A stretch of DNA of 64,000 nucleotides from contig JAJYOK010000004.1 in the NCBI GenBank assembly GCA_021796215.1, positions 30,217 through 94,216 on the forward strand, written 5' to 3'. A program made the translations under genes and the position numbers. Under the pieces are notes generated by a model that searched no databases, was not told where the DNA came from, and saw only the letters and a program-made list of their open reading frames with translations. Below are positions 18,952 to 46,855 of this stretch, in pieces (positions within the stretch are counted from its first letter, which is position 1; the number at the start of each line of letters is the position of its first letter). This DNA comes from Bacteroidota bacterium. Its GTDB lineage: Bacteria; Bacteroidota; Ignavibacteria; UBA10030; UBA8401.

Positions 18952-20892
18952 TCAACATAATACTTCAAATACAACGATCGGTTTTTCCAAACCTTTGACA
19001 TGAATTGGCTCAAGTTTCTTCGTACGGACAAAGTCTTTGACAAGGAGATACGTCGACTCTGAAATCAGTATTCCCCCGACTGGGGCGTTGGATTCTAGCC
19101 GTTGCGCAAGATTCACATCGGATCCAAGAACGGTGTACTCCATTCTTTGTGTCGAACCTAAGTCACCGACGACTACATAGCCTGTGTTTATTCCGATTCG
19201 AATACGCAGTGGTAATCGTCCGGCGGGTTCCCACTTTGCCCGCAGTTCCGCGCACTTACGTTGCATATCAATTGCAGCCTTGACGCATCGCAGTGCATGA
19301 TCCGACTGAGGCTCTGGTGCGCCGTAAAATACCATCAACCCGTCGCCGATAAATTTATCCACCGTTCCTCCATATTTGAACACTATCTCCGTCATTACGC
19401 CGAAATATTCATTCAATGTTGCGCTAATTTCTTCCGGTGACTTTGTCGAAGAATATGTTGTGAAGCTCTTAATATCGCTGAACATGACGGTTACTTCTTG
19501 CTTATGCGGTTTTGTACTAAGCGTATTCGGATTATCGATCATTTGTTTCACGACAGACGGAGGAAAATATGTCTCAAACTTGGAACGAAGCTTTTCTTTC
19601 TCCTTTTCCTCTGTGATATACCGTGACGCTACAATGGCTGTCACGGCAAAACCGCCTAACATCAACGGACGAACGATCTCGACGATCACCCCCATGTAGA
19701 TAAATAAAAGACTCGCCGTCACCAGGTATATAAAAACAAGCATGACCGATGCAGTCGTAAATTTTACCGAAGAATATTGCATGCTAAATATCGCTATACA
19801 GGTTGCTATGCATATCTCGATTAACGTCATGATAAATTCCGGCACTGATTGCAGAAATTGTCGTGTGAGAATGGTATTTAACACGTTCGAGTGAAGACCA
19901 ACAAGAGGAAAATTATTTTCAAAAGGCGTTGGCCCTGTATCAGAAATACCCGTCGAAACATCTCCCACAAGACCGATGGAACCAGCATATTCATCTTTAT
20001 AGGCTGCAATTTCCTCTCTGTCCTGAGCCACATCTAATAACTGTATGAATCCCACATGACGCATTGCCCCCCAACCGCCGATCCAGTTAATGAGCATATT
20101 TCCATTTTCATCAACGGGTATACTAACGTCTATTTTTTTTCCCGCTTGCATGATGGCATCATGTAAAGTTATCTGCCTTTTAGTGTCAATGCTGATTTTA
20201 TCTGGAGAGACTTTCCAGTAATCGCAAACGAGACGCATTATCATGCTTGGATAATAATCGCCTTTGTATCGAATAAGAAGGGGAACACGTCGATAGACCC
20301 CATCGATATCCGGCCGGACGCTAATAAAGCCGACGCCGCGCGACGCTTTCACAAGATCAGGCCAAGAAAGCAGAGTTGTTCCTGCAAAATAGAAATTATT
20401 CTCCGCGTTTGCTCGAAGCCTCCATGAAGTAGAGTCAAGAAAACTGATTGCCTGTTTTGATTTTGCGAACGGCTTACCGCGAGAATTCTCAAGGCTGAAC
20501 GCCACCGGTAAGTACACTCGATTTGCCTCCCGAACCGAGGCAACCATCAAGCTGTCGTCAACCATGTTGACTTTTTGGGCAAAGAGAATGTCGAATGCTA
20601 TAGCTGAAAATTCCATTTTCGAAAGCACACTTACTACTTGCGCATAATAACGGCGGGGGAAATAATAGCCAAGGCTCTCAATGGTGGAATTGGCAATATC
20701 AATATGAACAATTGAAGAATCGTATGTAGGCGGGTTCACAACGCTACGGATCAAAAATAATCTATCAACAGCTTGAAGGTTCCACGATTCGAAAACACCG
20801 GGGAGAATAAAAAAGAGGGTGCGTATTAGTAAAAAAGAGACAGCCGTTATGAAAGCGGCGCTCTTCAATCTTTGTTTTTTATTTATGGTCAA
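18952..20892 (-). CDS. CHASE2-domain sensor fused to class III adenylate/guanylate cyclase
   Basis: 646 aa. An N-terminal TM helix is followed by a ~300-aa extracytoplasmic region with CHASE2-like features, then 3 TM helices, then a cyclase catalytic domain with the motifs VTVMFSDIKSFT, KFIGDGLMVFYGAP and RIGINTGYVVVGDLGS. Confidence 0.8.
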   Translation of the reverse strand: MTINKKQRLKSAAFITAVSFLLIRTLFFILPGVFESWNLQAVDRLFLIRSVVNPPTYDSSIVHIDIANSTIESLGYYFPRRYYAQVVSVLSKMEFSAIAFDILFAQKVNMVDDSLMVASVREANRVYLPVAFSLENSRGKPFAKSKQAISFLDSTSWRLRANAENNFYFAGTTLLSWPDLVKASRGVGFISVRPDIDGVYRRVPLLIRYKGDYYPSMIMRLVCDYWKVSPDKISIDTKRQITLHDAIMQAGKKIDVSIPVDENGNMLINWIGGWGAMRHVGFIQLLDVAQDREEIAAYKDEYAGSIGLVGDVSTGISDTGPTPFENNFPLVGLHSNVLNTILTRQFLQSVPEFIMTLIEICIATCIAIFSMQYSSVKFTTASVMLVFIYLVTASLLFIYMGVIVEIVRPLMLGGFAVTAIVASRYITEEKEKEKLRSKFETYFPPSVVKQMIDNPNTLSTKPHKQEVTVMFSDIKSFTTYSSTKSPEEISATLNEYFGVMTEIVFKYGGTVDKFIGDGLMVFYGAPEPQSDHALRCVKAAIDMQRKCAELRAKWEPAGRLPLRIRIGINTGYVVVGDLGSTQRMEYTVLGSDVNLAQRLESNAPVGGILISESTYLLVKDFVRTKKLEPIHVKGLEKPIVVFEVLC

Positions 20893-21586
20893 TCGTGATA
20901 GTTTTGCTATAAAAATTGACGGCGGAGATTTCTGTGGCGAGCGTTGCGATGTCGAGGCGTCTCGGATGCATCGTGTCGGTCAGTGTGCCGCGAACATTGC
21001 CCGCAATCACTACCGGTCGCTCAGCAACAGTGGAGAATGTTCTGAACTGCTTCTTCAAATCTTGAATTTCTTTAATGACAACATCCCCGGCTTTTACCTT
21101 CTGGCTATTCTCTGCATGTATGAAATCCTTCAGTTTGTGTTCAAGTGCGATTAAACGTGTAGGAGACGCGAGAATGTAAAATGTTTCTTCTCCGGTAATG
21201 GTATCCAGAGTAAACCAAGCCCGGCCCTTTGGGATATAGTAATTCTCATCAACTGTGAGACCGCTGTCGAACATCTCTAACGAATAGGGAAATACTAAGT
21301 TGAGATCAGTGTTCGAGCTTTTGTGAATAATGTAGACAAACGTTTTCTGTATGACATACACAAACAATTTAATCTCGTCGCCGCTCTTGAGCAAAGTGTC
21401 GCGCGTAACAGCCGAAACACTCTTTTCACCTTGGGCACCGGACCGTGCAGCAAATACCCATTTAAACTTGATGTTTGCCTGGTTCGTCGAATCCTGTGCC
21501 GCACAAAGGGAGAACATGCAAATCACTGCACACGCCGCCCCAATGAATACGCTGACCTTGCGAAATGTCATAGTTCTTCCTTTCAT
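20879..21586 (-). CDS. Secreted DUF4384-like protein
   Basis: 235 aa with a signal peptide (MTFRKVSVFIGAACAVICMFSLCAAQ) and a beta-rich body. It overlaps the cyclase gene by 14 nt and lies 13 nt after the caspase gene. Assignment to DUF4384 rests on size and context recall and needs a profile search. Confidence 0.4.
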   Translation of the reverse strand: MKGRTMTFRKVSVFIGAACAVICMFSLCAAQDSTNQANIKFKWVFAARSGAQGEKSVSAVTRDTLLKSGDEIKLFVYVIQKTFVYIIHKSSNTDLNLVFPYSLEMFDSGLTVDENYYIPKGRAWFTLDTITGEETFYILASPTRLIALEHKLKDFIHAENSQKVKAGDVVIKEIQDLKKQFRTFSTVAERPVVIAGNVRGTLTDTMHPRRLDIATLATEISAVNFYSKTITIDHK

Positions 21587-21599
21587 TCGGGAGGAGTGA

Positions 21600-23975
21600 T
21601 CAGTGCGCTACTAGAGATATTGTCATATCTTTGTCGTAGTTCCCTTGGTTTCTGGTTGGATGCTGGTTTCCGTTCGTTTCTCGTTTCACTTTCTCTTCTA
21701 CATAATCCATTAGTTCTCCAATGGTTACAGTGTAGTCGTTATTGATATCAGCTGCGCCTTTCATCCCTTCTAGCAAAAAATAAGTGAACACACCATGTCC
21801 ATATTTCTCTAATTCCTGCGACACCTCACCTGCCTGGCTTGCTGTAAAGACGATCGTCCCTTCTTTGGCTTTAGAAAGATCAGAAAGATACTGGTTGATG
21901 AGATTTGTCTCGGACAACGACATTCCCCGCGTTGCAAGATCAGAGCTGATACCTCCGCTGTGACACGCATCGGAAAAAACTACAACACGCTTTGAAGGGA
22001 TATAACGAGTGAGTGCAGTGCTCACATCCCACATCGGGAATGCTGTTGTCTCAAGTGAATTAGGATCAGTGTCATAGGCGAGCAGGTAATTGTTGTTGGT
22101 ATTTGCAGGTTCAGATGCACCGTGCCCAGCAAAGTAAATGATCACGAGGTCATTTTCTATCGTTTGACGGAGAAAATTATAGAGCGCCTCCTTGATATTC
22201 CGGAGCGTTGCATCTTTGTTGAGCAAGATTTGCATGTGTGCCGATTCGAATCCTCCACCCGCAGGAGTTTTCAGGAAATCAGCAAATTCCTTAGCATCAC
22301 GATCAGCAAATTTAAGATTTTTAATTTGCGGATTTTGATACTCAGAAATTCCAACAACTACAGCCCACTGCTCCGGCTGGTTCGACGTACGCCTTACAAC
22401 ATCCGGATTTGGTGCAACCGATGCATTCAAGGTACGGCGGGTAATGTCAAATGATTTGGTGATCTTTTCTCCGTTTTTTGCAGACACAGTCAATACCAGT
22501 TGATTAAAGCCCGCGGAAAGAAAAATCTTTTCTTTGCTTTCAGCACCGATTATTCCGCGAACGGAATTTTCTTTATTTATTATTTCAACCGTATTGAGAG
22601 TGACGATATACCTCACATAATCAAACCAGACTCTGAAATCCAAATCGGTGCTTACTTGGTCGGTTTCGAAGACCTCTTTCGGTGAAAGTATTTCAAGCGC
22701 GGCGTCTTTCGAAAAACGTTGAATTTGAATATGGCTGACAGCCGTGTTTCCGCGTTTGTCGGTAGCGGTAACAATGATATTATTCATTCCAATAGTCGGG
22801 AGCTTTACCGTTGCAGAAAACCGTTTCGATTTCAGTTTTCCTGTTGCCCCTGCATCAATCAGTATGAACTTGTCGTTGCCAATCGTTGCCTCCTTCACGT
22901 CGTTTTCATCCGATGCAATACACGCAACATCAATTTGAGGTGCATAAATCTTGAAGACCTCGTTCTCTTTGGTACGAGGGTGCTCGACAACAACTTGAGG
23001 TGGAATCGTATCAGGCTTTTCCGAGAGCACTCGATATGTCTTTACGGCACCATGTACGGTGGTTGCTACCAATACCGGCGACACGGGCGAAAATGCAACA
23101 AGATTAAAAGAATCTGCTGAGTCAGAAATCGTTGTTGCCAGCGTTCTCGTTTTCAGATTCCAACATTGAATAACATTGCTTGCCGTTGCAAGCCACAAAT
23201 TATCGGCGCTATACGAAAGGGAGCTTACAATCCCCGACCGTGACTTCAAATATTGAAGCGGCGTGTAATTTGGAATCCCCCACATGCGAACCGTAGAATC
23301 CGCAAATGCAGCAGCCAAAAATTTTCCGTCCGGACTAAAGCGCAATGTGTTCATTTGCACGAGCGATGAAGTCGAGAACTTTTTTGATACTGTCAAAGTG
23401 GCAATATCTAGGATTTGTATATATCCATCACTTGTCCCTGAAGCAGCATATTTTCCATCAGGCGTAAAGGCGAGAGCCAAAACTTCACCGTCACTTTTCG
23501 GAAATGAACCAATCGCGTTTCCACCTTGCCAGAGTTTTGTTTCGTGGTCCGATCCTCCTGAAATCATTTTTCCGGACATACTGACATCGATAGCCCTCAC
23601 TCCTAACGCTGCAACATGAGCTTCTATCTCCTCTACCTGCGAGGTGTCGGGAATCCCCCAAATCATTATCTTACCATTGGCAGTGCTGGCAATGAGAGAT
23701 GTTCCGCTCGGAGCGAACGCAAGTCCAAATATCCCGCCGCTTTTTGTAGCGAGAGAATATCTTTCGCTGAGTGTGAACGGATCGACAACTTTAATTGTCT
23801 TGCCAGTTCCACTCAGGGCTATGAAGTTCCCCTTAGGGCTAAAGCTAACGGCGTAAAAAGGATATTGTTGAAGCACCGCTTTGCCCACTGGTTCCACATA
23901 AATTTCTTGGGCAAAGATTGAGAACGGAAAGACCAAAAAGAGCAGGTTGCCTATCAAAGACTTGCTAGACCTCAT
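21600..23975 (-). CDS. Secreted WD40-repeat / caspase-like (peptidase C14) fusion protein
   Basis: 791 aa with an N-terminal Sec signal (MRSSKSLIGNLLFLVFPFSIFAQE). A WD40-like propeller region is followed by a C-terminal C14 domain. The His block is ...LVIIYFAGHGAS... and the Cys block is ...VVVFSDACHSGGIS... (caspase catalytic dyad). Confidence 0.8.
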   Translation of the reverse strand: MRSSKSLIGNLLFLVFPFSIFAQEIYVEPVGKAVLQQYPFYAVSFSPKGNFIALSGTGKTIKVVDPFTLSERYSLATKSGGIFGLAFAPSGTSLIASTANGKIMIWGIPDTSQVEEIEAHVAALGVRAIDVSMSGKMISGGSDHETKLWQGGNAIGSFPKSDGEVLALAFTPDGKYAASGTSDGYIQILDIATLTVSKKFSTSSLVQMNTLRFSPDGKFLAAAFADSTVRMWGIPNYTPLQYLKSRSGIVSSLSYSADNLWLATASNVIQCWNLKTRTLATTISDSADSFNLVAFSPVSPVLVATTVHGAVKTYRVLSEKPDTIPPQVVVEHPRTKENEVFKIYAPQIDVACIASDENDVKEATIGNDKFILIDAGATGKLKSKRFSATVKLPTIGMNNIIVTATDKRGNTAVSHIQIQRFSKDAALEILSPKEVFETDQVSTDLDFRVWFDYVRYIVTLNTVEIINKENSVRGIIGAESKEKIFLSAGFNQLVLTVSAKNGEKITKSFDITRRTLNASVAPNPDVVRRTSNQPEQWAVVVGISEYQNPQIKNLKFADRDAKEFADFLKTPAGGGFESAHMQILLNKDATLRNIKEALYNFLRQTIENDLVIIYFAGHGASEPANTNNNYLLAYDTDPNSLETTAFPMWDVSTALTRYIPSKRVVVFSDACHSGGISSDLATRGMSLSETNLINQYLSDLSKAKEGTIVFTASQAGEVSQELEKYGHGVFTYFLLEGMKGAADINNDYTVTIGELMDYVEEKVKRETNGNQHPTRNQGNYDKDMTISLVAH

Positions 23976-41294: not shown

Positions 41295-41966
41295 GTGAAA
41301 ATTTTAGTTGTCGAAGACGAAAAGAAAGTTGCGGCGTTCATCAAAAAAGGATTAGAGCAGGAACATTACACCGTAGATGTTGCCGCCAACGGCGAAGAAG
41401 GCGAGCAGCGCGCCTTTTCACAGCCGTATGATCTGCTGATTCTTGATATTCTGATGCCGAAAAAGGATGGTTTAACAATGCTGCAGGACATTCGCGCAAA
41501 AAATATCTCTGCGCCCGTCCTCATGATCACAGCAAAGGGAACAGTCGAAGACAAAGTGAAGGGGCTCGACACCGGAGCCGACGATTATCTTGTGAAGCCC
41601 TTCGCATTTGCCGAATTGCTCGCACGTGTCCGTTCGCTGTTACGCCGCAGAGGCAGCGACGCAGCCACGCATCTCACGATCGGAGATCTTACCCTCGACC
41701 TTGTTACGCACAAAGCAAAACGCGGCGGCCGTACTATAGAACTGACGGCAAAAGAATATATGCTGCTCGAATATTTCATGCGCAACAAGAACAACGTGTT
41801 GAGCAGAATGACGATTTCCGAACACATCTGGCATTACAATTTCGATACTGGAACGAATATCATTGATGTCTTCGTCAATCACTTGCGCACAAAAATTGAC
41901 GGGAAGTCGGAGAAGAGGTTAATTCACACTGTGCGCGGTGTCGGTTATATGTTGAAAGAAACTTAG
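41295..41966 (+). CDS. OmpR-family response regulator of the heavy-metal (CusR/CopR-like) subfamily
   Basis: GTG start. VKILVVEDEKK...DLLILDILMPKKDG...VLMITAKGTVEDKVKGLDTGADDYLVKPFAFAELLARVRSLLRR is near-identical in pattern to CusR. A winged-helix C-terminus follows. Confidence 0.85.
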   Translation: MKILVVEDEKKVAAFIKKGLEQEHYTVDVAANGEEGEQRAFSQPYDLLILDILMPKKDGLTMLQDIRAKNISAPVLMITAKGTVEDKVKGLDTGADDYLVKPFAFAELLARVRSLLRRRGSDAATHLTIGDLTLDLVTHKAKRGGRTIELTAKEYMLLEYFMRNKNNVLSRMTISEHIWHYNFDTGTNIIDVFVNHLRTKIDGKSEKRLIHTVRGVGYMLKET

Positions 41967-41975
41967 CGTTTTTCC

Positions 41976-43499
41976 ATGGAAAAAAATCCTGCCATACGGC
42001 CTAGTGTTATGAAATTCATTCATTCCATCCGTACAAAATTGACCCTGTGGTATTCACTTATCGTGTTTGCCACGCTGGTCGGTTTCGGCATCACCGCGTA
42101 TTACTACACGCAGGAAAAACTCTTTGCGAGCCTGGACTATTCTCTTCGCAACGAAGTGGTATGGCTGAAAGGCTTTATTGAGCCGCAGGCGAAAAAAATT
42201 AAGCTGAAACGTCCGAAGCGAAAACCACCAGTGAGTAAAAAACAGGAAAAAAAGATCCGCAAATCTCATGAAGTGGAAGTAACGAACGAAGACTCGCTCG
42301 AAGTTGATCAAATTTGGAATCAGATTTATGAGCACACGTTGCTCAGCCCGAAGAAACAAATCATTCAGATACGCGACCGCAATGGCGATGTACTGTACAA
42401 ATCGTACAGCCTTGGGAAAGAAGATATTTCGTTTGAAGATATTCCGTACAACACCATCAAGCTCGTGACGATTTATGATGCGACCGGACAGGCTTTGCGT
42501 CTCGCCGTGACGCAAAATGCGATCATGAAAATCTTCGTTGCGTACCCGGAAGCGGAAGTTTCCGAGGTGCTCGGGAGTCTTTTTTCAATTTTCATTTTGA
42601 TGGTGCCGGCAGCGTTTGTGCTTTCACTGCTCGGCGGATGGTTTCTTGCAACGCGCTCGCTGAAGCCGGTAGATCAGGTCACCGGAACGGCACGCGCAAT
42701 CACGGCGCAAAATCTCGACCAGCGCATTCCTCATTCCGGCGTTGATGACGAGATCGGCAGATTGATTTCGACCTTCAATGATATGATCGAGCGTCTGCAA
42801 AGCTCATTTGAAAATGTGAAACAATTTTCCGTTGACGCATCGCACGAACTCCGCACGCCGCTCACCGTGATGCGCGGTGAAGTTGAAATTGCACTTCGCT
42901 CAAAACAATCCGGCGAAGAATACCGCCGTATTCTTTCCAGCACGCTCGATGAAATTCTGCGCATGTCCGCTATCATCGAAAATCTTCTCATGCTCGCGAA
43001 AGGCGACATCGGGAAATCCGACCTGCATTTTGAGAGCGTTTCGCTTGCGGGTATTGTGCGGGATTTATCGGAAGACGGCGAGATGCTGGCGAAAACGAAA
43101 AATATTTCCGTGCACGTTGACGCATCCGGCGATATTTGCACCATCGGCGATCCCGTTCGCCTGCGCCAGCTTGTTCTTAACCTTCTCGAAAATGCGATCA
43201 AATATACGAACGAAAACGGCAATGTATGGATGTCGCTTTTCCGTGAAAATGGCTCAGCAAAAATAGTGGTAAAAGATACCGGAATCGGCATTCCGAAAGA
43301 AGCCCAAACAAAAATTTTTGACCGGTTTTACAGGGTTGATAAAGGGCGTTCCCGCGAAATGGGGGGCACAGGACTTGGGCTTTCCATCGCAAAATGGATT
43401 GTAGAATCACATGGCGGAACTATTTCGGTGGAAAGTGAGGTTAATAAAGGAAGCACATTTACGGTGGTTCTTCCATTGGAGACAGTTAATGCAAATTAA
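41976..43499 (+). CDS. Sensor histidine kinase, heavy-metal sensor (CusS-like) architecture
   Basis: TM, then periplasmic domain, then TM, then HAMP. The HisKA box is SHELRTPLT and the HATPase_c motifs are NLLENAIKYT, DTGIGIP and GGTGLGLSI. The start is possibly at 42009 (MKFIHSIRTKLTLWYS). Confidence 0.85.
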   Translation: MEKNPAIRPSVMKFIHSIRTKLTLWYSLIVFATLVGFGITAYYYTQEKLFASLDYSLRNEVVWLKGFIEPQAKKIKLKRPKRKPPVSKKQEKKIRKSHEVEVTNEDSLEVDQIWNQIYEHTLLSPKKQIIQIRDRNGDVLYKSYSLGKEDISFEDIPYNTIKLVTIYDATGQALRLAVTQNAIMKIFVAYPEAEVSEVLGSLFSIFILMVPAAFVLSLLGGWFLATRSLKPVDQVTGTARAITAQNLDQRIPHSGVDDEIGRLISTFNDMIERLQSSFENVKQFSVDASHELRTPLTVMRGEVEIALRSKQSGEEYRRILSSTLDEILRMSAIIENLLMLAKGDIGKSDLHFESVSLAGIVRDLSEDGEMLAKTKNISVHVDASGDICTIGDPVRLRQLVLNLLENAIKYTNENGNVWMSLFRENGSAKIVVKDTGIGIPKEAQTKIFDRFYRVDKGRSREMGGTGLGLSIAKWIVESHGGTISVESEVNKGSTFTVVLPLETVNAN

Positions 43500-43597
43500 T
43501 TTGACTCTTGAAGAGCAAAAACTTACGTTTGTGCCAGTTGTTGCCGTACAACATAATCCAACTTAACTAATCTAAACATTTTTCCGAGGAGGTTTTT

Positions 43598-43924
43598 ATG
43601 AACAGCAAGGTGTTGCGGCTTATTGTCGCATGGTGTGTTGCACTCGCCTTCACACTCCCTGCTTTCGCTCAAACACAGGAAGCGAAAAAAGAGCCGATGA
43701 AGCAGGAAAAAAAGGAGATGAAGACCGAGAAGAAGGGGATGAAGCATGAGAAGACGAAGATGTCAAGTGCGAAGAAAAAAATGAAAAGTGAAAAAAAGGA
43801 GATGAAGGGGGAAAAGAACGAAATGAAACATGAGAAGATGGAGATGAAAAAAAAGGAAATGAAAAAGGATAACATGAAGATGGAAAAGAAAGAAATGAAA
43901 AAAGACAATATGGAAAAGAAGTAA
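43598..43924 (+). CDS. Small secreted Met/Lys/Glu-rich repeat protein (candidate periplasmic Cu/Ag-binding protein)
   Basis: A strong SD (GAGGAGG) lies 8 nt upstream. The signal peptide is MNSKVLRLIVAWCVALAFTLPAFA. The mature 84 aa are built from E-K-K-E-M-K repeats and include two MKHEK (M-x-H) motifs, with ~17 Met in total. The gene sits directly downstream of the CusRS-like two-component system and is followed by a terminator. Confidence 0.5.
   Translation: MNSKVLRLIVAWCVALAFTLPAFAQTQEAKKEPMKQEKKEMKTEKKGMKHEKTKMSSAKKKMKSEKKEMKGEKNEMKHEKMEMKKKEMKKDNMKMEKKEMKKDNMEKK
43690..43921 (+). repeat. Imperfect tandem nucleotide repeats (GAGAAGAAGGRGATGAAG-like units) encoding the EKKEMK repeats
   Basis: GGAGATGAAG/GAAATGAAA units visibly recur. 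They produce long spurious antisense ORFs (43669..44046, 43763..44125). Confidence 0.6.
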
Positions 43925-43954
43925 TTTCCTTTTCTCGTTTCCCCTTTTTGTATC

Positions 43955-43988
43955 AAAGCCCTGCACAACGCAGGGCTTTGTTGTTTTT
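43955..43988 (+). terminator. Rho-independent terminator after the Met-rich protein gene
   Basis: AAAGCCCTGC-acaac-GCAGGGCTTT (10-bp stem) followed by GTTGTTTTT. Confidence 0.6.
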
Positions 43989-43991
43989 GCG

Positions 43992-45323
43992 GTGCGGGAA
44001 ATCGCATCGCAATTGCACGATATATTCCTTCTCCGTATCTTGTCAAGAAAAAATCTCATGCCGGCGCATCGCCCACAGAAACTCACCACCGCTGTACAAA
44101 GAGCTCTTCGGACAGTATTTTCCATCTTCCGCTCTCAAGAGCACCCGCTCACCGGAGTGTACAAAATTCAGGTTGTCTCGCTGCAGGAAGAACTCGAACA
44201 CCCGGAGTCGCTTCCGAAAGAACTGCGCTACGCTCTTCTCCAAAATCCGTCGTTGAAAGAACGTATTGAATCTGTTTTAAACAATGGAAAAACAATCGGC
44301 GTACGCACTGTGCAGAAAACTCCGGAACGTGTGCTCAGCGCCATCAACAGCATTTCACAATTCAGCCAGCACAAAACAATTGTCACATGGCTTCCCGCAC
44401 TATTGACGCGGCAGGAATCTCCACGAATGCTTCCTTCTGACCACGAGCGCGCAGCAGCCCACAATGTCGATCTGAATCGTGAAGTTACACACATCCTGGA
44501 CCACCGGCTGGAATTCAAAAAGTTCATGATCATTGATGACAGCCATGTGGGGTTGACATCTGAAGATAGATCGCTTATTGACGCTCTCAACGAACTCATC
44601 ACACCTATTGTACTGAAACATGTTGTCAGCCGGATGACATTTGACAACGCCGATACGCGAACTGCGGTAGCTCAATCCATTCTCAAAGCGCTGCTCATTA
44701 TCGGGCCGATCACGCAGGTGTTGGAACAATACACCCATGGCTTCGGAAAAATTTTTGCTGCATCAATGGATGATATTCTTTCTGAAGTTGCAGAATTGTT
44801 TGCGCTGCACGGCTCCGGTTTCCGGTGGAAGCAGCTCGTTCAACGCATGAAGATTCTCGTTCCTATTTTCGCGCTTGCTTCGTACGGCGCTTATCATGTT
44901 GATACGCTGATTGATGAACAGCATTTCGCGCTTGCCGGCATTTTGTTCGGCGCATCGGCAGTTGCACTTTCGCTTACCACCGCTTTGCAAAGTATTCGTC
45001 TATATAAACAATGCATAGATGCGTTGATTCATGATGAAAAATTACCGCCGGCACCGCCAGTGCGGCGCTGGCTTTTGGCAATCCGTCAGGATTTTACCAA
45101 TCCTGCGCGATTAGGATTATTTGTCGGCGCTTTGATTTCCCCGATTGCGGCAATGATTGTCTTTGTCGGACTTCCCTTTTTCGTTCACAACGGATGGGTG
45201 CTCGCACTTCTTGGCACAGCAGAAACACTGACAGCCGGTTTGTTTGTTGTTATCGCGCGCCGCTTGAATGCGTTACGATTTCAATTAACCATTTCACGTC
45301 TGCTGAACGGACACGGGCGTTAA
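43992..45323 (+). CDS. Hypothetical protein with C-terminal transmembrane helices
   Basis: 443 aa with no recognisable motif. The C-terminal ~150 aa are hydrophobic (3-4 TM). The start is uncertain (GTG at 43992 overlaps the terminator; ATG at 44058 is possible). Confidence 0.4.
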   Translation: MREIASQLHDIFLLRILSRKNLMPAHRPQKLTTAVQRALRTVFSIFRSQEHPLTGVYKIQVVSLQEELEHPESLPKELRYALLQNPSLKERIESVLNNGKTIGVRTVQKTPERVLSAINSISQFSQHKTIVTWLPALLTRQESPRMLPSDHERAAAHNVDLNREVTHILDHRLEFKKFMIIDDSHVGLTSEDRSLIDALNELITPIVLKHVVSRMTFDNADTRTAVAQSILKALLIIGPITQVLEQYTHGFGKIFAASMDDILSEVAELFALHGSGFRWKQLVQRMKILVPIFALASYGAYHVDTLIDEQHFALAGILFGASAVALSLTTALQSIRLYKQCIDALIHDEKLPPAPPVRRWLLAIRQDFTNPARLGLFVGALISPIAAMIVFVGLPFFVHNGWVLALLGTAETLTAGLFVVIARRLNALRFQLTISRLLNGHGR

Positions 45324-45433: not shown

Positions 45434-46855
45434 ATGGAACCACAAGTTGTAAGTCCGGCGGAGACAACTTTTTCTTCTGAACCGACGCTTGCCCGGCGCC
45501 TGACACTTGTCTCTGCCGTTATGGTTGTCATCGGCTCAGTGATCGGCTCGGGAATTTTCCTGACGCCGCAAAGCATCGCTGCAACAATCCAGATTCCGGG
45601 CATAATGATCTTTGTCTGGATTCTCACAGGCATTCTTACGCTCGCCGGCGCTCTTACCAATGCTGAAATTGCCGGATTGGTTCCCGAAGCGGGCGGGCAA
45701 TATGTTTTTTTCCGCGTGACATTCGGCGAACTCACAGCGTTTCTCTACGGCTGGACAACATTCATTGTGTATCAAACCGGTTCCATCGCTGCAATTGCTG
45801 TCGCATTCGGGCGTTACACCGGTTACTTCGTTCACCTGCCCCATTTCAGCCCTGCGCTTGAAGCATGGGAACTTCCGCTCATCGGCAATATTCATCCGTT
45901 CAACGATATCGGCGTAACGATGGTGGCAATTTCTGCGATTCTTATTCTTGCAGCAGTGAATTATTTCGGCGTTCAGTTCGGCGGTTTCGTGCAAAATATT
46001 TTTACTTTTTTGAAAGTTGCTGCCATCGGCGGCATCATTGTTCTTGCGTTCGGTTCAGGCAAAGGAAGCACCGCGCATTTCTTTCCGTTATGGGGAACAC
46101 CTGCATCCGGCGCACTGCTTGGCGCCATCGGCGTTGCCATGATCGCTACGCTCTGGTCATACGACGGCTGGAACAGTCTTACATATCTTGCCGGTGAAGT
46201 AAAAGAGCCACAGCGCAATATTCCCCGTGCGCTCATTCTTGGTACGATTGCTGTGATCATTATTTACGTTCTGACCAATCTAGCGTACTTATACATTCTT
46301 CCCATTGGTGAGATTGCAACATCAAAACTTGTTGCGGCAGATACGATGGAGAGAATTTTCGCCGGCTACGGCGGCGCAATTATTGCCGCGATGGTGATGA
46401 TTTCAACCTTCGGTACGGTGAACGCAACTTCGATGACGACAGCGCGGGTGTATTTTGCAATGGCGAAAGATAAATTATTTTTTAAATCGCTCGGCGAGGT
46501 GCATCCGAAATACAGAACGCCGGCAAAATCATTGGTTGTTCAGGCGGTGTGGGCGTCTCTTTTGACACTCACCGGAACGTACGATCAAATTTTCACCTAT
46601 GTTATCTTCGCCGGATGGATTTTTTATGCGTTAGGCGCCGCCGCCGTATTCATTCTGCGGAAAAAAATGCCAAACGCAGCGCGTCCGTACAAGGTGCCGG
46701 GCTATCCGTACGTGCCGATCGTTTTCATCATCGTTGCAACGTGGTTTGTGTTCAATACTATTGTTCACCAAACTGCGGATTCTATGGTGGGATTGCTTCT
46801 TGTTGCGGCTGGAATTCCTTTTTATTTGTATTGGAAGAAACAAATGTCGGCGTAA
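45434..46855 (+). CDS. APC-superfamily amino-acid permease
   Basis: 473 aa with 12 predicted TM helices. The N-terminal ...VIGSGIFLTPQ... motif is typical of APC transporters. Confidence 0.85.
   Translation: MEPQVVSPAETTFSSEPTLARRLTLVSAVMVVIGSVIGSGIFLTPQSIAATIQIPGIMIFVWILTGILTLAGALTNAEIAGLVPEAGGQYVFFRVTFGELTAFLYGWTTFIVYQTGSIAAIAVAFGRYTGYFVHLPHFSPALEAWELPLIGNIHPFNDIGVTMVAISAILILAAVNYFGVQFGGFVQNIFTFLKVAAIGGIIVLAFGSGKGSTAHFFPLWGTPASGALLGAIGVAMIATLWSYDGWNSLTYLAGEVKEPQRNIPRALILGTIAVIIIYVLTNLAYLYILPIGEIATSKLVAADTMERIFAGYGGAIIAAMVMISTFGTVNATSMTTARVYFAMAKDKLFFKSLGEVHPKYRTPAKSLVVQAVWASLLTLTGTYDQIFTYVIFAGWIFYALGAAAVFILRKKMPNAARPYKVPGYPYVPIVFIIVATWFVFNTIVHQTADSMVGLLLVAAGIPFYLYWKKQMSA

Follow-up and report, generated by a model that had tools for sequence, protein, structure and literature searches.

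A small gene downstream of a two-component system

The stretch of DNA analysed here, called the window below, comprises 64,000 nucleotides (nt) of contig JAJYOK010000004.1 (assembly GCA_021796215.1) from a Bacteroidota bacterium of the Ignavibacteria lineage. At 43598–43924 of the forward strand it carries an open reading frame (ORF) with an ATG start for a protein of 108 amino acids, situated downstream of the genes for a response regulator (41295–41966, forward strand) and a sensor histidine kinase (41976–43499, forward strand). This mini-gene is genuine and monocistronic, with its own promoter and terminator. A Shine-Dalgarno sequence, GAGGAGG, is found at 43586–43592, 5 nt upstream of the ATG, and AGGAG occurs at the matching place in the orthologues of the gene. 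A sigma-70-type promoter is predicted at 43501–43529 from its match to the consensus and from its conservation: it consists of a -35 element TTGACT (43501–43506), a 17-nt spacer and a -10 element TACGTT (43524–43529), and the pattern TTGAC(A/T)-N17-TA(A/C)GTT recurs in 19 of the 20 orthologous loci described below, 63–91 nt 5' of the ATG and a few bases past the stop codon of the kinase. On the other side of the gene, an intrinsic terminator (43954–43988, forward strand) is formed by an 11-bp stem (7 GC) at 43954–43980 with a 5-nt loop, followed by the T-run TTGTTTTT, and an equivalent GC-rich hairpin with a T-run lies 3' of the stop codon in 20 of 20 orthologues. No riboswitch or known RNA was detected when the 5' untranslated region and the locus were scanned with Rfam.

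The first 24 residues of the product, the mini-protein, form a predicted Sec signal peptide (43598–43669, MNSKVLRLIVAWCVALAFTLPAFA followed by QTQ), with signal peptidase I cleavage predicted between AFA and Q and no lipobox Cys at +1. This site was placed by its AxA/Q pattern, without a dedicated predictor, and its context, (F/L)AQ(D/E/T), is kept in all 20 orthologues. The mature Lys/Glu/Met repeat region (43670–43924, 84 residues plus the stop codon) consists of 33 Lys, 16 Glu, 14 Met, three residues each of Gln, Thr, Ser and Asn, two each of Ala, Gly, His and Asp, and one Pro. It has a molecular weight of 10.3 kDa, a pI of 9.9 and a net charge of +15; Lys accounts for 39% of it, Glu for 19%, Met for 16.7% and Lys, Glu and Asp together for 60.7%. 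In fact, 14 of its 16 hydrophobic residues (counting Met, Val, Leu, Ile, Ala and Phe) are Met. These residues are arranged in six to seven MKxEKKx heptads, which make up the main array, and then in pentads (MKKKE, MKKDN, MEKKE), the C-terminus having two exact MKKDN units and several MKKKE or MEKKE pentads. At the DNA level, Tandem Repeats Finder reports a 21-nt period with 7.3 copies and 66% match; at the protein level, the spacing between Met residues is 7 in ten cases and 5 in five, and the hydrophobic autocorrelation at lag 7 reaches a z-score of +5.5 against shuffled sequences. A single-sequence AlphaFold2 model gives one continuous helix (residues 3–107) with a mean confidence (pLDDT) of 88.9, a result which is typical for Glu/Lys-rich sequences and is read as helical propensity only; the mature protein is likely to form a long helix of high charge, or else to be disordered. 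The earlier note on this DNA had pointed to the strong Shine-Dalgarno sequence, the signal peptide, the strong terminator and the EKKEMK-type repeats with two M-K-H-E-K units, all of which are borne out; its figure of about 17 Met in the 84 mature residues was an over-count, since the mature part contains 14 and the whole protein 15.

Two further observations concern the coding strand. The mini-gene uses AAG for 59% of its Lys codons (20 AAG, 14 AAA), compared with 22% (16 AAG, 55 AAA) in its neighbours at 41295–43499 and 45434–46855, a preference which may reflect avoidance of slippage-prone poly-A runs in a gene with 39% Lys, or codon selection for high expression. In addition, two antisense ORFs of 120–125 amino acids, rich in Phe, Leu and Ser, span the mini-gene and its terminator (43669–44046 and 43763–44125, reverse strand); these were rejected as genes and are regarded as mirror artefacts of an A/G-rich, low-complexity coding strand.

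Conservation and variation in related genomes

Relatives of the mini-protein are not found from its own sequence. A word-index search of 5.8 billion proteins with the mini-protein as query gave nothing at E<=1e-3, and the only matches of an exhaustive phmmer search among 1.84 billion representatives were two unrelated, long proteins of low complexity. Single-sequence searching fails for such a composition; what led to relatives was the synteny with the kinase gene. Scanning the upstream kinase against one genome per species gave 26 loci, from Ignavibacteria-like or "Bacteroidota" metagenome-assembled genomes, with kinase identities of 51–92%. In 20 of these 26 an ORF of 71–143 amino acids is located directly 3' of the kinase stop codon; it is present in 19 of the 20 loci with a kinase identity of about 62% or more (the exception being L019) and, in addition, in L026 at 52%. 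All 20 ORFs, which are positional orthologues of the mini-gene, encode a signal peptide that is conserved, followed by a mature part rich in Lys and low in complexity, and a profile built from them retrieved nine further family members from metagenomes.

An alternative, of which the earlier note was aware, is that the ORF is merely open, untranslated low-complexity DNA, rich in A and G. This idea draws on the low complexity itself, on the antisense ORFs of 120–125 amino acids, which are likewise open, and on the lack of homologues in single-sequence searches. Nevertheless, the ratio of nonsynonymous to synonymous substitutions (dN/dS) is 0.07 against locus L003 and 0.13 against L002, at dS values of 1.2–1.7; AAA and AAG, as well as GAA and GAG, are both used and mixed along the gene; the signal peptide, Shine-Dalgarno sequence, promoter and terminator are kept in about 20 genomes; and the profile reaches the nine metagenomic relatives. 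The probability left to a non-coding explanation is negligible.

What is kept within the family differs from what is most conspicuous in the window protein. Across the 20 orthologues Lys ranges from 32 to 49%, net charge from +7 to +22 (+12 to +22 in 19 of them) and Met from 0 to 17%; His is zero in 14. Met makes up 6–17% throughout the clade in which kinase identity is at least 74%. On the other hand, the proteins of three sister lineages (L016, L017 and L027) have 0–1 Met (0–1%) and are built of AEVKKEA-type repeats, with Val or Ala in the place of Met and a 14-residue period (z-score up to +7). Met, Val, Ala and Thr interchange at the same repeat position among orthologues. His enrichment is confined to the window, L002 and L003, with five His in L003, and the C-terminus of the L009 protein has four perfect MxKDx units. 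As far as these sequences indicate, the family invariant is a polycationic repeat, predicted to be exported, in which a weakly hydrophobic position recurs every 5–7 residues, and the enrichment in Met is a feature of one sub-lineage.

Metagenomes also contain many other mini-proteins with a signal peptide and (E/D)KKEMKK repeats (P0013, P0014, P0016–P0021, P0023 and P0025), for example in a Gallionellaceae metagenome-assembled genome. The contexts of P0013 and P0014, both from Gallionellaceae (loci L041 and L043), have no two-component or Msr genes nearby. Some Lys/Glu/Met-repeat mini-proteins have been named by JGI after the unrelated RcnB, SecG, MlaC or ribosomal protein L12E. These look-alikes are probably a convergent, unannotated class of exported peptides, and P0013 and P0014 were set aside as uninformative for the mini-protein.

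The adjacent two-component system and its surroundings

The regulator encoded at 41295–41966 belongs to the OmpR family, CusR/HprR subfamily, with the Pfam domains Response_reg and Trans_reg_C; the kinase encoded at 41976–43499 has two transmembrane segments, a periplasmic domain, and HAMP, HisKA and HATPase_c domains according to Pfam. The best NCBIfam models for both genes are heavy-metal two-component subfamilies, and in both cases the score is just under the cut-off (274.4 bits against 279.2 on TIGR01387 for the regulator, 276.4 bits against 292.55 on TIGR01386 for the kinase). The regulator is 51% identical to CusR of Escherichia coli, 41% to HprR and 33% to OrhR of uropathogenic E. coli (UPEC); the kinase shares 35% identity with CusS and 31% with HprS, in the cytoplasmic part only. 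No sequence match to the sensor domain was found in PDB, where matches start at about residue 227. This periplasmic domain is highly conserved among the orthologues (DQIWNQIYEHTLLSPKKQIIQIRDRNGD...) and contains no Cys, one Met and two His. Its residues ~75–115 (window ~42198–42320) comprise a Lys/Arg-rich stretch, KKIKLKRPKRKPPVSKKQEKKIRK, then an acidic stretch, SHEVEVTNEDSLEVD, and then the almost invariant DQIWNQIYEHTLLSPKKQIIQIRDRNGD. The positions of the periplasmic metal ligands of CusS (H42, F43, M133, M135, H145 and H176) are occupied in the window kinase by K, L, a gap, a gap, D and V, in a low-identity alignment that places them approximately. The description of the pair as CusRS-like in the earlier note therefore stands for the regulator, with its 51% identity to CusR, and for the heavy-metal models being nearest, but it goes too far in that both scores are below cut-off, the likeness of the kinase is restricted to its cytoplasmic part and the CusS ligands are absent.

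The regulator, the kinase and the mini-gene form the only block common to the loci, since the flanks differ: upstream of the module there is a beta-propeller protein gene in the window and in L003, and there are TRAP-transporter genes in L006. Judged from this synteny, the mini-protein is a lineage-specific partner of a CusR/HprR-family system in an Ignavibacteria-like clade (Bacteroidota/FCB, the Fibrobacteres-Chlorobi-Bacteroidetes group). No consistent CusR/HprR-type box (an ATTACA/TGACAA palindrome) was found in the promoters of the mini-gene and the regulator, only short palindromes around the -35 element, so that control of the mini-gene by the two-component system is suggested by synteny only. 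The tie between the two that had been proposed earlier is upheld by strict synteny in 20 genomes. A gene for a protein of 421 amino acids further downstream was considered as a part of the module and rejected, as it lies beyond the terminator, is absent in L015 and L017 and is widespread in unrelated phyla.

The wider context covered ~37 larger ORFs across the window, screened with Pfam, and the flanks (6 kb on each side) of the 26 related loci. No cus, cop, sil, pco or multicopper-oxidase gene (cusCFBA, copA, CusF, CopC) was found among these ORFs or flanks. The neighbours in the window encode RsmE, the beta-propeller protein, an uncharacterised protein, an amino-acid permease and a PD40/peptidase protein. 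Elsewhere in the window, a cluster on the reverse strand (18952–23975) encodes a CHASE2-adenylate/guanylate cyclase (18952–20892), a DUF4384 protein (20879–21586) and a 791-residue protein with WD40 and Peptidase_C14 domains (21600–23975); the cluster, unrelated to the mini-gene, could serve in signalling or as a caspase-like module.

Possible functions and relation to known systems

By analogy, the mini-protein is tentatively read as an MrpX-type buffer against oxidants or stress in the periplasm, linked to the two-component system, a reading that leads the alternatives at less than an even chance. MrpX of Azospira is a small protein with a signal peptide, in which Met makes up 20% and charged residues 44%. 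Reactive chlorine species strongly induce it via SigF/NrsF; hypochlorite oxidises it, and YedY/MsrP regenerates it (PMC4436054). The described mrpX genes sit in yedYZ/msrPQ operons. In UPEC, the mrpX homologue c3568 is co-transcribed with an msrQP-like pair, and the adjacent two-component system OrhKR activates both (PMC8550376). Two systems of E. coli, HprRS, which responds to hypochlorous acid (HOCl), and CusRS, which responds to copper, both induce msrPQ. In the mature part of c3568 (E. coli CFT073, L040 26947–27189) Met amounts to 16.7%, Lys to 20% and charged residues to 40%, and the net charge is 0; the Met content is thus the same as in the mini-protein, and Lys is the commonest residue in both. 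The retention of Met as 14 of the 16 hydrophobic residues, even though identity among the 21-nt units is down to 66%, is counted as selection on Met in the clade. If the mini-protein acts like MrpX, we infer a periplasmic location, regulation by the two-component system and scavenging of oxidants: the many solvent-exposed Met thioethers, aided by Lys amines, would be sacrificed to oxidation by reactive chlorine or oxygen species, and envelope proteins would be spared. Copper-driven oxidation may be among the insults absorbed. The lysine backbone would provide solubility and closeness to the anionic envelope, and expression would proceed from the gene's own promoter, presumably tuned by the adjacent regulator.

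The MrpX-type reading has several observations to contend with. On the hidden Markov model (HMM) of the family, TIGR02953, the mini-protein scores 12.3 bits, below the cut-off of 41; its relatives from L004 (22 bits) and from metagenomes (P0009 and P0010, 26 bits each) are also below. However, the studied homologue c3568 itself scores 35.2 bits and is labelled "hypothetical protein" in RefSeq; because a genuine homologue falls short, this cut-off is a weak discriminator for a low-complexity family, and the model under-calls its own family. One of the relatives, P0009, bears the JGI name "pentapeptide MXKDX repeat protein". No Msr gene or Oxidored_molyb domain was found by Pfam among the ~37 window ORFs, no Msr gene is present within 6 kb on either side in the 26 related loci, and tblastn with MsrP and MsrQ of E. 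coli gave no match in the window or the 26 loci, so that the mini-gene, which is monocistronic, has no adjoining msrPQ/yedYZ pair of the kind seen with MrpX. The mini-protein has twice as much Lys, Glu for Asp, and a net charge of +15 against about 0. In HprS, the periplasmic Met72 and Met153 and the transmembrane Cys165 have been implicated in HOCl sensing (bioRxiv 10.1101/2021.09.09.459708); these residues align to L, V and V in the window kinase, in an alignment of low identity and hence approximate. Finally, in the comparison with L003, whose kinase is 92% identical, 5 of the 14 Met differ (Met to Val three times, to Ala once and to Thr once), and these replacements, together with the near-zero Met of L016, L017 and L027, mean that Met is not essential to the family.

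Another candidate is a polycationic envelope-stress protein like Asr, the acid-resistance repetitive basic protein of Enterobacteria, in which case function would reside in positive charge and a repeat helix and Met would be merely the preferred weakly hydrophobic residue; possible roles include the binding or shielding of the anionic outer-membrane or lipopolysaccharide surface and that of a charge-dependent disordered chaperone or aggregase. Expression of asr is under two-component control, and Asr is generally described as rich in Ala, Gln, His and Lys, with almost no Glu or Met. In the periplasm, Asr is reported to act as a basic, repetitive and disordered chaperone, contributing to the integrity of the outer membrane in a way that depends on net charge, and its induction is very strong (PMC10746267, which cites Ren et al., 2022). 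Lys, net charge, signal peptide and the heptad or 14-mer periodicity are the sole family-wide invariants here, the Met-free orthologues keep all of them, and the exchange of Met, Val, Ala and Thr at one repeat position is what this explanation expects; the Asr model NF033636 also recurs as a sub-threshold match, the best being 24.3 bits (L011). The cut-off of 50 bits is not reached, though, the mini-protein itself has no NF033636 match at E<=1, nothing ties the locus to acid, and neither the 14 Met among 16 hydrophobic residues nor the 6–17% Met across the clade with kinase identity of at least 74% is accounted for. An Asr-like role is possible but somewhat doubtful. It fits the family-wide conservation and comes close behind the MrpX type, which fits the composition of the window protein and the regulator family. 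Both are compatible, as a polycationic envelope scaffold could have gained oxidant buffering by Met in one lineage. Metal binding, on the other hand, is improbable. The earlier note had proposed that Cu(I) or Ag(I) is bound in the periplasm by a sponge or chaperone, whose ligands would be the thioethers of Met and the imidazoles of His and which an adjacent Cu-sensing two-component system would induce; this proposal can appeal to the best matches of the regulator (CusR at 51%, TIGR01387/TIGR01386 just sub-cut-off), to the 16.7% Met with two MxM, one HxxM and two MKHEK units in the mini-protein, to the five His of its nearest relative L003, and to a precedent in Synechocystis, where copMRS encodes a periplasmic Cu-binding protein together with its two-component system (PMC4335983). 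Nevertheless, SilE and PcoE are defined by the motifs MxxHxxxxxxHxxMxx and HxxMxxxHxxMxx, in which the residues are spaced i,i+3 or i,i+4 (PMC5008109), and the mini-protein has no MxxH, one HxxM, no MxxM and no MxxxM. Of the putative ligands, His is missing from 14 of the 20 orthologues and Met from three, with Met replaced by Val, Ala or Thr even at 92% kinase identity; the net charge of +15 disfavours cation binding; no Cu/Ag efflux or oxidase gene occurs among the screened larger ORFs in the 64 kb or near the orthologues; the kinase periplasmic domain, with its 0 Cys, 1 Met and 2 His, lacks the CusS ligands; and there is no Pfam or NCBIfam match to CusF, CopC, PcoE/SilE or CopM. A copper or silver sponge is poorly supported, every hallmark that could be tested being absent: the motifs, conserved ligands, metal genes nearby and a sensor of the CusS type.

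Another kind of explanation looks to the kinase rather than to the envelope. The mini-protein could be a periplasmic accessory or feedback protein, as in the pairs CpxP–CpxA and ZraP–ZraS, with a polycationic helix that binds the sensor or competes with its ligand. The mini-gene is the sole gene always linked to the regulator–kinase pair and has its own promoter right after the kinase stop codon, the conserved acidic stretch of the sensor (SHEVEVTxEDSxE) could dock a polycation, and weak N-terminal Spy matches are seen in two orthologues. Yet the basic and acidic sensor segments are also found in kinases without a mini-gene (L020–L025), and hence do not co-vary with it; the repeats change rapidly, in length as well, which is unusual for a specific protein–protein interface; and there is no fold similarity to CpxP, Spy or ZraP, the scores being 18–22 bits against a cut-off of 174. 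This role is therefore rated unlikely. The mini-protein has no match in Pfam and only sub-threshold ones in NCBIfam; the matches to CzcI, Sec_Non_Glob and Spy were dismissed because they align to the signal peptide or the Lys-rich N-terminus with 16–22 bits against cut-offs of 90–174. There is also a small chance that regulator, kinase and mini-gene constitute an undescribed three-gene envelope-stress module of Ignavibacteria-like bacteria, with a polycationic Met-stripe helix as its sole dedicated output and as a sink for reactive chlorine or Cu(I)/Ag(I), without efflux pump or MsrPQ. One possible mechanism in such a module would be a "Met zipper", in which metal or oxidation drives the Met stripes to pair, and the rapid switching between Met and Val among lineages would be a retuning of the chemistry of the sink.

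The locus is of biological significance because MrpX- and Asr-type proteins, which among the examples examined have been characterised in Proteobacteria, escape standard annotation owing to their low complexity. Here a comparable protein is found outside Proteobacteria, tied by synteny to a CusR/HprR-type system and not to msrPQ, and with charge, not Met, as the conserved property. If the MrpX-type reading is true, sacrificial buffering by Met would extend to uncultured Bacteroidota/Ignavibacteria, and the orthologues would form a natural Met/Val "mutant series" in which the contributions of charge and of thioethers could be told apart. As a caution, a Met-rich protein with a CusRS-like neighbour is alone insufficient for calling a copper or silver protein.

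Compared with known systems, the adjacent pair shares its domain architecture with CusRS and HprRS (YedVW), and the heavy-metal subfamily models fit it best; its kinase differs from theirs in a periplasmic sensor unrelated in sequence, with a Lys/Arg-rich insert, and no cusCFBA or msrPQ target lies nearby. The mini-protein resembles SilE and PcoE in being small and exported, in having Met and some His, in its predicted capability to form helices and in adjoining a system of the CusRS family (silRS or pcoRS in those cases). It is unlike them in being extremely Lys-rich and cationic and in having no sil, pco or cus efflux context. The earlier note had set its Lys-rich repeat chemistry apart from the MxxH-repeat proteins; what had been missed is that a known family, MrpX/MXKDX (TIGR02953), has just this chemistry, and that its demonstrated role is the scavenging of hypochlorite, not the binding of metal (PMC4436054). 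Some MxKDx-like units (MKKDN) occur in the mini-protein beside its heptads. With MrpX, BcrX and c3568 of this family it has in common a small size (80–110 amino acids), a signal peptide of the Sec type, a mature part of low complexity made almost only of Met and charged residues, and an adjoining envelope-stress regulator, which is the extracytoplasmic function sigma factor system SigF/NrsF in Azospira, BcrS/AbcS in Brucella and OrhKR in UPEC. In contrast to MrpX, the heptad MKxEKKx and not the pentad is dominant, Met is dispensable in the sister-lineage orthologues, and the host belongs to the Ignavibacteria-like Bacteroidota, whereas the MrpX-type examples examined are all from Proteobacteria. 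Like Asr, it is exported, small, repetitive, strongly basic, of low complexity and monocistronic, with net positive charge as the conserved property, a property on which Asr is reported to depend; unlike Asr, it has no evident acid link at its locus, and even the best orthologue remains below the NF033636 cut-off (24.3 against 50 bits). The mini-protein therefore falls in no curated family by HMM and is a clear compositional and architectural relative of the MrpX- and Asr-type proteins.

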